Notes under the pieces: generated by a model
Databases searched by the model: none
What the model was told of the DNA's origin: nothing
What the model saw: only the letters and a program-made list of their open reading frames with translations
DNA from: an uncultured Clostridium sp.
GTDB taxonomy: Bacteria; Bacillota; Clostridia; TANB77; CAG-508
Assembly: GCA_948467875.1 (NCBI GenBank)
Contig: CAOKFZ010000002.1
Span: 144,462-208,461, forward strand
Direction of reading: 5' to 3'
DNA length: 64,000 bases
Shown here: piece after piece, positions 61,132-63,717 of the stretch
Position numbering within the stretch: position 1 is the stretch's first letter
Layout of the letters: the number at the start of each line of letters is the position of its first letter
Translations under genes and position numbers: made by a program

Positions 61132-63717
61132 TTAACATTTACAAATAGGACATTTTCCATAACCATTTCTTTGGTTATATACATATCTTTCATATTCATG
61201 TCCATTTTTGCATCTCCACCATACTTTTTTACTATAACTTTTACTTATAGTTTTAGGTGTAATTCCCAATTTATCATTTTTTTCATAATCCCACTTTTTC
61301 AATAATTCAGGATTAGTAGTTGCTAAATCATTATATCCTTGTAATACCTTATTTCCAGAGCAATATGGACATCCTGTTCCCTTTCTTCTTGATGGTACAC
61401 TTGCCTCATAACTATGATTTTCTTTACAAATCCACCATATTTTTTTATTAGTTCCTTCTGTTATATCTTCTGGTTTTATAAAATTTTTACTATAATCCCA
61501 TTCTTTTAAAAGTTCTGGGTTAGTTGTAGTTATATCATTAAATCCTTTTAACACTTTTTTCCCAAGACAGTATGGACAACAAGTACCTTTCGCTTTAGTT
61601 CTATTAGCAATAGTAGTTTGATATAAATGTCCACTTTCACATCTCCACCAAACTTTTTTTCCTGTTTTTTTCTTTACATTTTCAGGATAAATCCCCAATT
61701 TTTTGTTCTCTTCATAATCCCATTCTTTTAATAAATGAGGATAAAGAGTTGCAAAATCATTTATGTATTCTATCGCATATCTACCAGAACAATATGGACA
61801 ATTAGAACCTCTAGCCCTATTGTTTAATGTTGCCATCCATTCATGACCATTTTTACATTTCCAATTTACCATTTGAGTTGAATTTCTTACTACATTTTGC
61901 GGTTTAATCCCCAATTTATTATTTTTTTCATAATCCCATTCTACTATTAATTCTGGACTTGTTGTTGCTAAATCATTAAATCCAACTAATATTTTTTTAT
62001 TAGCACAATATGGACATTTAGTTGCTTGATTAATTTTCGTTGAAATAACAGCCTGATAATCATGACCTTTTTCACACTTCCACCAAATTTTTAGCGAACT
62101 CCCATTACTCATGTTTTCTGGTTTAATACCAATTTCATTATTTTTCTCATAATTCCATTCTTGTAATATTTCTGGATTTGTTTTAGCTATACAATTTTCT
62201 TTTTCTATAAAAGTTATCATTTTCATTATTTCGTCAAAGTCTCTTTTTATGTTATAATTCAAATTTAACTTAAAATACTCTTTTAAAAAGCTTAAAGCTT
62301 CTTCTATATATGTATAATCAGTAGTATTTTCTCTTTGCATTGTATATATTATAGCATTTGTCATTATTGAAGGAGCATTCTTTTCTCTTATTCTTATCAA
62401 TTTCACATTATTTTCTTTACATAAGTTGTCCTTTTCAATATCTCGTTTAATATCTTTATGATAATAATATCCATCATATTCAATTCCTGTATTAAGTTCT
62501 GGTATATATATATCTAACTCCTTAGGTTTTAGCCATTTAGGTTTATAGTTAGCTTGAGTTTTTGGAAATATTCTTTGCATATAATAGAATATTATTTTTT
62601 CTGGTATTGATGTTCTTAAATAGCTTGAACATATTGGACATCTATTATACAACTTATCATTTCTTATTCTCGCTGATATACTTGACTGCCATTCATGTCC
62701 TTTTTCGCATTTCCACCAAAATTTAATTTTTCCCCCTAAAATAATTTCATCTGGTTTTATTCCTAACTTTTTATTTTTCTCGTAATTCCATTCTTTCAAT
62801 AATGTAGGATATTTGGTTGCAAAATCATTATAGCCTTTTAATACTTGTCGATTAGCACAAATTGGACAATTTACATTTCTATTTGTTTTTTGAGCTACAG
62901 ATATTTCATATTCATGTCCATACTCACATTTCCACCACACTTTTTTTGTTGAACCATGACTTAACTCAAATGGCGTTATGCCTAATCTTTCATTTTTCTC
63001 ATAATTCCATTCTTTTAATAATTCTGGATTAGTAGTAGCTATATCATTATAACCTTTTTTTACTAAATTATTAGAACAATAAGGACACCCACTACCAGTT
63101 ATTCTACTACGAATTATAGAACTCCATTTATGTCCTTTTTCACATCTCCACCATACTTTTTCTTTACCACCATTAGTTATCTCATTTGGTACTATTCCAA
63201 TTTTTCCATTTTCTTCATAATCCCATTCTTTTAATAATTCTGGATTAGTAGTTACTAAATCATTATAACCTTGTAACACTTTTCTATTTCTACAATATGG
63301 ACAATTTCCTCGACCATTTAATCTGTCATAAACGCTTCTACTGTATCTATGTCCTTTATTACATATCCAATTTACTTTTTTCTGCGAACCAACTAAAACT
63401 TCATTGGGCATTATTCCAAGTTTCTCATTTTTTTCATAATCCCATTCTTTTAACATTTCTGGATGTAGTGTTGCAAAATCATTTAAACCTTTTATTGCTT
63501 TTTTCCCCATACAATATGGACATCCTACACCTTTTATTCTGGTATGAATAACAGCTTCCCATTCATGACCTTTATTACATTTCCACCATACTTTTTTGCT
63601 GCTTCCAACAGTAAAATATTCTGGTTTTAAATTACCATTCTTTTCATAATTCCATTCGAACATTAATTTTTTATTCTCTGATAATAATTTATTTTCCATA
63701 CTATTGCATTCTTTCAT
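61132..63717 (-). CDS. 861-aa protein: 5 + 5 zinc-ribbon (CHCC) repeats flanking a Vsr/PD-(D/E)xK-like endonuclease core
   Basis: Ten units of about 66 aa follow the pattern W(D/N)YEKN...(V/I)WW(K/R)C..GH.(W/Y)...CP(Y/I)C...ND.AT..PELLKE. The central segment reads IPEKIIFYY...KELDIYIPELNTGIEYDGYYYHKDIKRDIEKDNLCKENNVKLIRIRE. The start could be ATG 63717 or 63699. Confidence 0.8.
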   Translation of the reverse strand: MKECNSMENKLLSENKKLMFEWNYEKNGNLKPEYFTVGSSKKVWWKCNKGHEWEAVIHTRIKGVGCPYCMGKKAIKGLNDFATLHPEMLKEWDYEKNEKLGIMPNEVLVGSQKKVNWICNKGHRYSRSVYDRLNGRGNCPYCRNRKVLQGYNDLVTTNPELLKEWDYEENGKIGIVPNEITNGGKEKVWWRCEKGHKWSSIIRSRITGSGCPYCSNNLVKKGYNDIATTNPELLKEWNYEKNERLGITPFELSHGSTKKVWWKCEYGHEYEISVAQKTNRNVNCPICANRQVLKGYNDFATKYPTLLKEWNYEKNKKLGIKPDEIILGGKIKFWWKCEKGHEWQSSISARIRNDKLYNRCPICSSYLRTSIPEKIIFYYMQRIFPKTQANYKPKWLKPKELDIYIPELNTGIEYDGYYYHKDIKRDIEKDNLCKENNVKLIRIREKNAPSIMTNAIIYTMQRENTTDYTYIEEALSFLKEYFKLNLNYNIKRDFDEIMKMITFIEKENCIAKTNPEILQEWNYEKNNEIGIKPENMSNGSSLKIWWKCEKGHDYQAVISTKINQATKCPYCANKKILVGFNDLATTSPELIVEWDYEKNNKLGIKPQNVVRNSTQMVNWKCKNGHEWMATLNNRARGSNCPYCSGRYAIEYINDFATLYPHLLKEWDYEENKKLGIYPENVKKKTGKKVWWRCESGHLYQTTIANRTKAKGTCCPYCLGKKVLKGFNDITTTNPELLKEWDYSKNFIKPEDITEGTNKKIWWICKENHSYEASVPSRRKGTGCPYCSGNKVLQGYNDLATTNPELLKKWDYEKNDKLGITPKTISKSYSKKVWWRCKNGHEYERYVYNQRNGYGKCPICKC

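Follow-up and report, generated by a model that had tools for sequence, protein, structure and literature searches.

The EDxHD motif was defined in the homing endonuclease I-Bth0305I, where it comprises residues E170, D196, N208, H213, and D222 set in a Vsr-like fold, and the same study placed the Hef-type endonucleases in the Vsr-like family (PMC3239194); one of these, the Hef of phage U5, is reported to cleave nrdB (PMC2988022). Repeats of the CapR/DUF723 type, on the other side, serve T5orf172 homing endonucleases as DNA-binding modules, strung like "beads on a string" according to the published description, and in the phage members of that group repeats are gained and lost via recombination between them (PMC10448857), while for CapR itself it was shown experimentally that DNA binding depends on four cysteines (PMC8096241). 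Both themes meet in a study of phage intron endonucleases (PMC12350094, Nucleic Acids Res 2025), in which 3–5 CapR/DUF4379/DUF723-like domains of ~60 amino acids (aa) are followed by a C-terminal EDxHD/Vsr-like domain. These EDxHD/Vsr homing endonuclease genes of phage group II and group I introns were presented as a "large unrecognized outgroup" with thousands of unannotated UniProt matches. Here we describe a gene in a 64,000-nucleotide (nt) stretch of contig CAOKFZ010000002.1 from an uncultured Clostridium sp. (the window), which encodes an 861-aa protein with ten zinc-ribbon repeats arranged around a central nuclease domain. It is likely, judging from homology and conserved residues, that the protein works without a partner and that its zinc-ribbon array places one Vsr/EDxHD-type active site on a long DNA target. 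With moderate confidence we favor the wider reading of the gene as an autonomous site-specific DNA endonuclease of the Hef-like/EDxHD lineage that behaves as a selfish, homing-type gene.

Relation to Described Endonucleases

An earlier note on this DNA, made from its letters alone, knew of no characterized system with this layout. That claim is not supported, as CapR/DUF723/DUF4379-like arrays fused to nucleases have been published for phage homing endonucleases (PMC12350094, PMC10448857, PMC8096241). The layout is not unprecedented, because zinc-finger arrays joined to either T5orf172 or EDxHD/Vsr nucleases were published between 2021 and 2025. What is new here is a bacterial, island-borne member in which the nuclease is internal, between two DUF4379 arrays.

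The Hef-like proteins (U5 Hef, F-LimX of LIMEstone1, and AR9 g146) possess a homologous core, which aligns from a C-P-x-C knuckle through E...D...E/F-x-D/N-G...H...K...R-I. AR9 g146, a "Hef-like homing endonuclease," also has zinc-ribbon repeats before its nuclease and is intron-encoded, and F-LimX is free-standing like the window gene. However, the phage Hef-like proteins carry 0–3 CapR/DUF723-like ribbons, on the N-terminal side only, together with another C-terminal extension, whereas the window protein has ten DUF4379 units placed on both sides and belongs to a bacterial island, not a phage. The intron outgroup is built of the same two blocks as the window protein, zinc-finger repeats and an EDxHD/Vsr-like nuclease, and AR9 g146/g147 sit in the phage virion RNA-polymerase beta' gene, which is the host gene described for that outgroup (PMC12350094). 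There the nuclease is terminal and follows 3–5 repeats, in contrast to the window family, in which it is mostly internal, accompanied by up to 10–16 repeats, and free-standing in bacterial islands or chromosomes.

Repeated zinc-finger modules are also shared with the T5orf172/CapR proteins (of ICP1 and other phages, and the PLE repressor CapR), but the T5orf172 type has a GIY-YIG-like nuclease at one terminus and CxxC...CxC ligands, whereas the ligands of the window protein are CHCC. No T5orf172 (GIY-YIG-like) domain was found in the protein at Pfam E≤0.01, and the Vsr-like core is its only non-repeat domain. E. coli Vsr, DUF559, and MTES_1575 appear to represent the same PD-(D/E)xK variant as the window core, with a histidine as the presumed base and the third-motif lysine absent. 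In the window protein, nothing points to mismatch repair or to a dcm partner. A T4-like coliphage "endonuclease" found by tblastn was considered as a whole-protein homolog and rejected, having six related ribbons and no Vsr-like core. In Escherichia phage Delraymugoa (L083 2659–4287; here and below, L-numbers are contig or locus labels), that "endonuclease" lies between ssb (gp32-like) and frd and has a C terminus that looks T5orf172-like by eye; the Delraymugoa protein would thus be a case of the ribbon array combined with a different nuclease.

The Nuclease Core

The earlier note singled out a unique central segment, which we delimit as aa ~370–515 (~146 aa), with E373, D402, E413, D415, and H420. 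The numbering of the residues is correct, and they are invariant or nearly so in two alignments, one of 38 cores (alignment A1) and the other of 71 homologs. Invariant in A1 are the preceding C-x-x-C, S370, E373, Y379, D402, E413, Y414, D415, G416, H420, D426, K429, and R444, and R442/R444 also count among the conserved core residues. Each member of the EDxHD composite motif (E373, D402, D415 as the x residue, H420, and D426) is either invariant or at least 90% conserved in the 38- and 71-sequence alignments. An AlphaFold model of the core computed on A1 (predicted local distance difference test, pLDDT, 91; predicted template modeling score, pTM, 0.86) runs in the order helix, three strands, helix, strand (a-bbb-a-b), followed by one strand and two helices; as modeled, this topology is that of a restriction-endonuclease core. 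A literal D...(D/E)-x-K motif is not found, the third motif, E413-Y-D415, being without a lysine; K429 from the following helix supplies the lysine, as in Vsr-type enzymes.

The isolated core matches PHROG families phrog_9902 (4e-15), phrog_559 ("HNH endonuclease," 9e-14), and phrog_3339 ("homing endonuclease," 7.5e-13). Among the predicted viral structures of BFVD, 68 match the core at E≤1e-3, including a Listeria phage "treble clef" protein (template modeling score, TM, 0.74), DUF559 proteins, giant-virus "restriction endonucleases," Staphylococcus and Pseudomonas phage "homing endonucleases," and a "DNA mismatch endonuclease." A Vsr-like fold is supported by these predicted structures, with no significant match to a solved one.

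When the A1 profile was scored directly, it gave 45.7 bits for AR9 g146, 39.4 bits for F-LimX, and 18.9 bits for the EDxHD prototype I-Bth0305I (PDB 3R3P). The last similarity is weak, and in the whole PDB set 3r3p appears at E=0.34, amid chance matches to designed proteins. A fragment of I-Bth0305I retrieves both AR9 g146 and F-LimX in a tblastn search, and a HMMER alignment puts its N208, H213, and D222 and the following lysine on D415, H420, D426, and K429; the order and spacing of the residues and the Hef-like alignments suggest that E170 is equivalent to E373 and D196 to D402. I-Bth0305I shares the composite motif and probably the Vsr-like fold with the window core, but has NUMOD/helix–turn–helix (HTH) DNA-binding regions, is intron-encoded with a C-terminal nuclease, and acts as a dimer on a 14-bp pseudopalindrome, while the window core has E413 as an additional acidic residue and is followed by a helical extension that is conserved. 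Because of the profile scores, the tblastn link, and the correspondence of the EDxHD motif, we place the core within the EDxHD/Vsr-like lineage, in its Hef-like branch. The Vsr/DUF559-type variant of PD-(D/E)xK nucleases that the earlier note had proposed agrees with the motif residues, the AlphaFold topology, the BFVD matches, and the Hef-like profile match.

The Zinc-Ribbon Arrays

On both sides of the core, the Pfam family PF14311 (DUF4379, "probable treble clef zinc finger") matches a total of 10 stretches; its score of 546.6 bits (gathering cutoff 24.5; E=3e-168) confirms the identity that the earlier note had suggested for these units. The W-x-C knuckles start at aa 45, 117, 190, 262, and 335 before the core and at aa 546, 619, 691, 762, and 834 after it, and together with the ten Pfam stretches they bear out five repeats on each side of a unique core. 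The putative zinc ligands C...H...C-P-x-C (W-x-C-x3-H ... C-P-x-C) are intact in 10/10 repeats. The pattern W..C..GH...CP.C, which had been called invariant, is so for its four ligands, but the glycine of "GH" is an asparagine in repeat 9. The unit length of 66–67 aa given at that time is too short: the DNA-level repeat families (8–10 copies, 60–76% identical) are spaced at 213–222 nt, and the actual period is therefore 71–73 aa. The most variable positions among the paralogous repeats lie before the W-W-x-C hairpin and from G-H to C-P-x-C, and the 861-aa protein ends two residues beyond its last C-P-x-C.

An hhalign comparison of the DUF4379 repeat alignment with the repeats of the T4-like phage endonuclease and of AR9 g146/g147 gave a probability of 84% (E=7e-6), over a 32-column zinc core only, and the DUF4379 unit HMM (hidden Markov model) built here did not detect the repeats of the phage Hef-like proteins. 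In the full-length AlphaFold model the mean pLDDT is 91.9, with a pTM of 0.59 for the 861 aa. Since pLDDT is high through the linkers, the model hints that the DUF4379 array is fairly ordered and more rigid than the phage arrays.

Zinc-finger modules can be co-opted as repressors, as CapR shows (PMC8096241), and the protein might by analogy be a domesticated, non-cutting DNA-binding regulator; alternatively it might bind or cut RNA, given that the PDB matches to the repeats are limited to kinetoplastid mitoribosome and assembly-factor proteins. We regard this pair of explanations as quite unlikely. Domestication of the CapR type involved loss of the nuclease domain, whereas here 38–71 homologs keep the residues of the catalytic motif with little or no variation and the core is under purifying selection, and the relatives of the core, I-Bth0305I, Hef, and Vsr, act on DNA.

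Variation and Selection across the Family

A word-indexed protein search had given 3 matches to the core. An exhaustive HMMER search with a 155-aa core query returned 5,030 representatives of 50%-identity clusters at E≤1e-3, of which 1,350 reached E≤1e-10. The hosts are Firmicutes, Saccharibacteria, Melainabacteria, Bacteroidota, Spirochaetes, Elusimicrobia, Victivallaceae, and one methanogen, in a patchy spread, and the family is also found in at least 327 viral contigs, including those of jumbo phages and a giant-virus metagenome-assembled genome (MAG). Tandem or multiple copies occur in some genomes, and Listeria and Campylobacter phages hold several copies per genome. The Hef-like/EDxHD lineage, of which only a few phage proteins had been recognized, has a very large unannotated bacterial branch. 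Members of the family are annotated as "zinc-ribbon domain-containing protein" only, a database label that can now be tied to a concrete, testable activity.

Repeats were counted in the 150 best representatives and in 85 relatives from 80 genome-collection loci, and range from 0 to 11 before the core and from 0 to 7 after it. An internal nuclease with repeats on both sides is the rule among the relatives from bacterial and archaeal genomes (77/85), but 5+5 or 6+5 is seen only in close relatives (59–78% identical overall). The symmetry of the layout, in which the earlier note saw a pointer to function, is one state of a continuum, and it is polymorphic. A natural 4+5 allele of 791 aa (L091 6924–9299) lacks precisely repeat 3 (72 aa) in frame, with the junction in the DNA-conserved linker, while its island is otherwise 97–99% identical to the L090 counterpart, which holds an 863-aa allele (7493–10084). 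Members of 705 and 780 aa occur in another 90% cluster. The junction of the repeat-3 deletion falls in the linker, for which reason we consider the conserved linker DNA, pointed out in the earlier note, to be the substrate for repeat gain and loss.

Each repeat is 0.72–0.92 identical to its counterpart in a 78%-identical ortholog, as against 0.39–0.62 among paralogous repeats. Orthologous repeats being far more alike than paralogous ones, the array must be old, with each position keeping its own identity. The ratio of nonsynonymous to synonymous substitution rates (dN/dS) is 0.12 and 0.19 against two orthologs (78% and 69% identical), both arrays included and with synonymous sites near saturation, and by this estimate the nuclease gene is under purifying selection. 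The proportion of synonymous differences (pS) from the orthologs is ~0.55 in the arrays and ~0.78–0.81 in the core (62173–62610); the lower value of the arrays could stem from gene conversion between repeats or from constraint at the DNA level.

If the arrays read DNA in a modular way, these proteins would be nucleases for long targets that evolve new specificities one whole repeat at a time, and the 4+5 allele provides a natural comparison. A more far-reaching version, which we put forward as a doubtful one, would have the bipartite DUF4379 arrays as a semi-rigid, modular DNA-reading code of a few bp per position-specific unit around a single Vsr-type active site. The family of ~5,000 clusters in gut bacteria would then constitute a natural library of very-long-target nickases or nucleases, re-targeted as repeats are gained, lost, or swapped, and those on mobilizable islands would be directed at competing elements, as weapons, instead of being homing genes in the classical sense.

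Proposed Mechanism and Role

In the mechanism that we propose, E373, D402, D415/E413, and D426 would hold Mg2+, H420 would be the general base, and K429 and R442/R444 would contact phosphate. The ten zinc-ribbon units of ~72 aa, each presumed to bind one Zn through C-H-C-C, would read DNA position-specifically, and arrays on both sides of the scissile site would define a long asymmetric target; six residues join the last ribbon of the N-terminal array to the first helix of the nuclease. With one active site per chain, each monomer would make a nick, and breaking both strands would take a dimer like that of I-Bth0305I. Since the target would be long, no partner or immunity gene would be needed. 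Specificity would shift by the gain or loss of whole repeats through recombination in the DNA-conserved linkers, and the gene would persist as stand-alone selfish cargo at the edge of a cargo slot, beside the terminator of mobV. A selfish homing-type role is favored because of the Hef-like relationship, the lack of a partner, and the patchy distribution across domains.

A number of observations weigh against this reading. On the isolated core, Pfam gives REase_MTES_1575 at E=0.15 (12.6 bits against a cutoff of 38.2) and OGG_N at 0.078, with DUF559 unmatched. Foldseek searches with the core against solved structures return no significant nuclease (SfsA at E=0.056, PspGI, and BsaWI on top, E=0.06–0.3), and the best nuclease for the full model against PDB is 1vsr at a nonsignificant E=0.74 (TM 0.48 normalized to the target). 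The exact protein type, DUF4379 plus a Vsr-like core, is biochemically uncharacterized, and the solved DUF4379 domains, in the kinetoplastid proteins mentioned above, are RNA-associated. Purifying selection as strong as this would be expected of a gene useful to its host no less than of an active selfish gene, and the window gene and several relatives are found among defense-type genes (Mrr, GmrSD, HEPN/AbiU2, reverse transcriptase, and Macro). For classical homing, alleles must often reside together in one cell, and this is more evident for phages than for bacteria. A pair of alleles differing by the nuclease gene alone at one site, with a clean empty-site allele, was not found, the sister islands differing by whole cassettes, and homing is for this reason a proposed role. 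Neither an intron nor an intein is present at the nuclease locus.

The Mobilizable Island

The entire element is contained in an ENA contig with the identical gene (L001), and the identical protein is encoded on other metagenome contigs as well. The order in L001 is tmRNA (transfer-messenger RNA) gene, tyrosine integrase, five small open reading frames (ORFs), HTH regulator, UPF0489-like, Macro-domain, and HI_0787_N-like genes, 158-aa ORF, nuclease, convergent split MobV, and ispG. The tmRNA gene (L001 1567–1922) lies outside the window, in which an Rfam scan found nothing. GC content is 21–30% precisely over the tmRNA–ispG interval; in the window it is 25–27% at 60–64 kb, compared with 30–40% across most of the rest, in agreement with the AT-richness noted earlier. 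We read the element as a ~12.3-kb integrative mobilizable element beside ssrA, of which the window has the last 4.5 kb. Its exact ends are inferred, because the 9-nt repeat that marks them (Table 1) is short.

The halves of mobV (151 and 182 aa) overlap at 60541–60587 and are split in this way on all five contigs read, whereas sister islands have an intact mobV of 316–319 aa; the split could be either a frameshifted pseudogene or a slippage site. The candidate origin of transfer (oriT) presumably resembles the nick region of the pMV158 type. In sister islands that lack the nuclease, MobV is 86–90% identical and the other cargo is different, and homology to them extends across mobV and the terminator hairpin as far as 61128, where it is lost within a few bases of the nuclease stop codon. 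This endpoint indicates that the nuclease gene does not belong to the backbone but is cargo that can be exchanged, at the border of a variable slot. The linkage to MobV and the accessory character that had been suggested for the gene are supported, by the MobV match, the structure of the island, and the exchange of cargo between sister islands. The shared backbone consists of the integrase, five small ORFs, and the HTH regulator at one end and MobV at the other, with the cargo slot at 6800–9500 of L001. Our analysis adds one more cargo type to those of tmRNA-adjacent integrase/MobV islands, which bears on how accessory and defense-type genes circulate in gut Firmicutes.

Table 1. Features of the locus in window coordinates (strand "." denotes no orientation), followed by the cargo of sister islands between the HTH gene and mobV
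Feature	Position	Strand	Details
Zinc-ribbon-array endonuclease gene	61132..63717	-	861 aa, ATG start; ORF list, Pfam DUF4379 x10
N-terminal array, DUF4379 repeats 1–5	62611..63669	-	aa 17–369; HMM built on repeats
Central nuclease domain	62173..62610	-	aa 370–515; predicted Vsr/EDxHD-type core ~370–460 and conserved helical extension ~468–513
Catalytic motif stretch	62386..62601	-	aa 373–444; E373...D402 (ELDIY)...E413-Y-D415 (IEYDG)...H420...D426..K429...R442-I-R444; alignment columns
C-terminal array, DUF4379 repeats 6–10	61135..62172	-	aa 516–861
Probable attachment (att) core, right-hand island end	59524..59532	-	CTCCACCAA; last 8 nt of tmRNA gene plus next base, repeated directly past ispG stop
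Candidate oriT hairpin	60022..60047	+	TGAAGTTCTAGTGTGTTAGAACTTCA; GTGTG in loop; ~85 nt upstream of mobV
MobV-family relaxase gene	60132..61089	+	two overlapping ORFs, 60132–60587 and 60541–61089; NCBIfam MobV E=5.9e-32, Pfam Mob_Pre
Perfect 18-bp hairpin, bidirectional-terminator-like	61091..61133	.	between convergent mobV and nuclease genes
Upstream 158-aa ORF, 3' part	63733..64000	-	runs off window end; stop codon 63733–63735, 15 nt before M1
L090 cargo			pEK499_p136, Mrr_cat, 158-aa gene, nuclease
L193 cargo			DUF5301, DUF3781, hydrolase
L189 cargo			reverse transcriptase and other genes
L195 cargo			HI_0787_N-like gene and differently built, split family member (3+4)

The cargo of these islands brings up a second explanation, in which the arrays recognize foreign phage, plasmid, or rival-island DNA and the nuclease protects the host or the island, in defense or in competition between elements. 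Mrr_cat, pEK499_p136, reverse transcriptase, and a Macro-domain protein all appear as alternative occupants of the slot, three further mobilizable or integrative elements carry close 5+5 relatives, which adjoin an integrase, a MobA/VirD2 relaxase, or an intact MobV, and a dN/dS of 0.12–0.19 would suit a protective gene. A nuclease of this kind, however, with ten modules to read its target, suggests a single long fixed site and not broad recognition of non-self DNA, and its closest annotated relatives are intron-encoded and free-standing homing endonucleases of phages. We consider the defense explanation rather unlikely, and prefer the selfish homing-type gene, also in view of the neighborhoods described below. 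The accessory nucleic-acid-targeting function proposed in the earlier note keeps its nuclease and its mobile-cargo context; the unknown layout, the symmetry, and the partner gene on which it had also leaned are not supported.

In the L195 island (7778–9704), the family member is divided into an ORF of 152 aa with two repeats and one of 484 aa with one repeat, the core, and four repeats, alike on three contigs. Since the second ORF begins mid-linker, this is probably a disrupted gene.

Neighboring Genes and the Question of a Partner

The gap of 15 nt to the upstream ORF, counted earlier among the features of a possible system, holds if M1 is the start codon; other gene callers choose the alternative start M7 at 63699, with which the gap is 33 nt. 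An "855-aa variant" was considered as a separate allele and rejected, the DNA being identical and the start call alone differing.

The 158-aa protein has no match in Pfam, PADLOC, or PHROG. It could form a two-gene system with the nuclease, for example as an inhibitor or specificity factor, and the pair with its 15-nt gap is indeed kept in a sister island (L090–L092) despite other cargo upstream, in a right-hand block with 89.6% identity, compared with 77% in the left backbone. Yet a homolog is present at 0/80 of the other nuclease loci of the genome collection, another sister island carries a family nuclease without the 158-aa gene, and homologs 49–84% identical occur without a DUF4379 gene in four settings: a glycolysis-gene neighborhood, serine-recombinase/TnpV elements, a prophage, and beside a HipA-like gene. 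The two-gene system is thus highly improbable, and the upstream ORF, which had been offered as a possible partner, is not one by this evidence.

Neighbors were clustered up to four genes to each side, and 150 neighbors within two genes were scanned separately against Pfam and PADLOC. No conserved neighbor emerged, as no family is present at more than about 6/80 loci. The commonest are HTH regulators, SecA, tRNA U5-methyltransferase, serine recombinases, and GmrSD. Points that would speak for defense are scattered through this set: relatives adjoin GmrSD, AbiU2-type HEPN, and HEPN_LA2681 genes, and single neighbors match mad2, HEC-06, SspE, and Orf5 of PADLOC. On the other hand, neither NCBIfam nor PADLOC returns anything for the nuclease protein, PADLOC-DB 2.0 has no match for the nuclease or the 158-aa ORF and only a generic HTH among the island cargo, no methyltransferase or PADLOC system was found, no conserved partner, sensor, or immunity gene accompanies the family, and many relatives lie in housekeeping neighborhoods (secA, tRNA U5-methyltransferase, and argG). 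The earlier note had held that housekeeping contexts and the lack of a conserved partner would speak against its proposal. Some homologs are so placed and none has a conserved partner; these findings argue against a multi-gene defense system and not against a nuclease.

A family member follows directly after secA in four MAGs (L014, L032, L040, and L050; ~7000–8900), with differing repeat numbers. The order hpf–secA–nuclease is found in 3/4 of them, with unrelated genes downstream, and the position after secA may be a recurrent insertion point. A conserved insertion site of the secA–prfB style was sought in these four copies; because the genes downstream differ, no clean homing site can be defined from them.

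HI_0787_N-like genes (76–84% mutually identical) are found immediately upstream of three family nucleases that differ in build, at L001 8824–9441 (5+5), L048 646–1236 (3+5), and L195 9728–10306 (split 3+4), an association that would fit a defense cassette. As a general partner HI_0787_N was rejected, being present at only 1 of the other 80 genome-collection loci, and the link may be either functional or a matter of shared cassette ancestry. Within the L001 cargo slot, the last 41 nt of the HTH gene (6763–6803) recur with 90% identity at 9430–9470, just before the 158-aa gene, whereas sister islands have one copy. This repeat looks like the scar left when the UPF0489/Macro/HI_0787_N block inserted into an older order of HTH gene, 158-aa gene, and nuclease.

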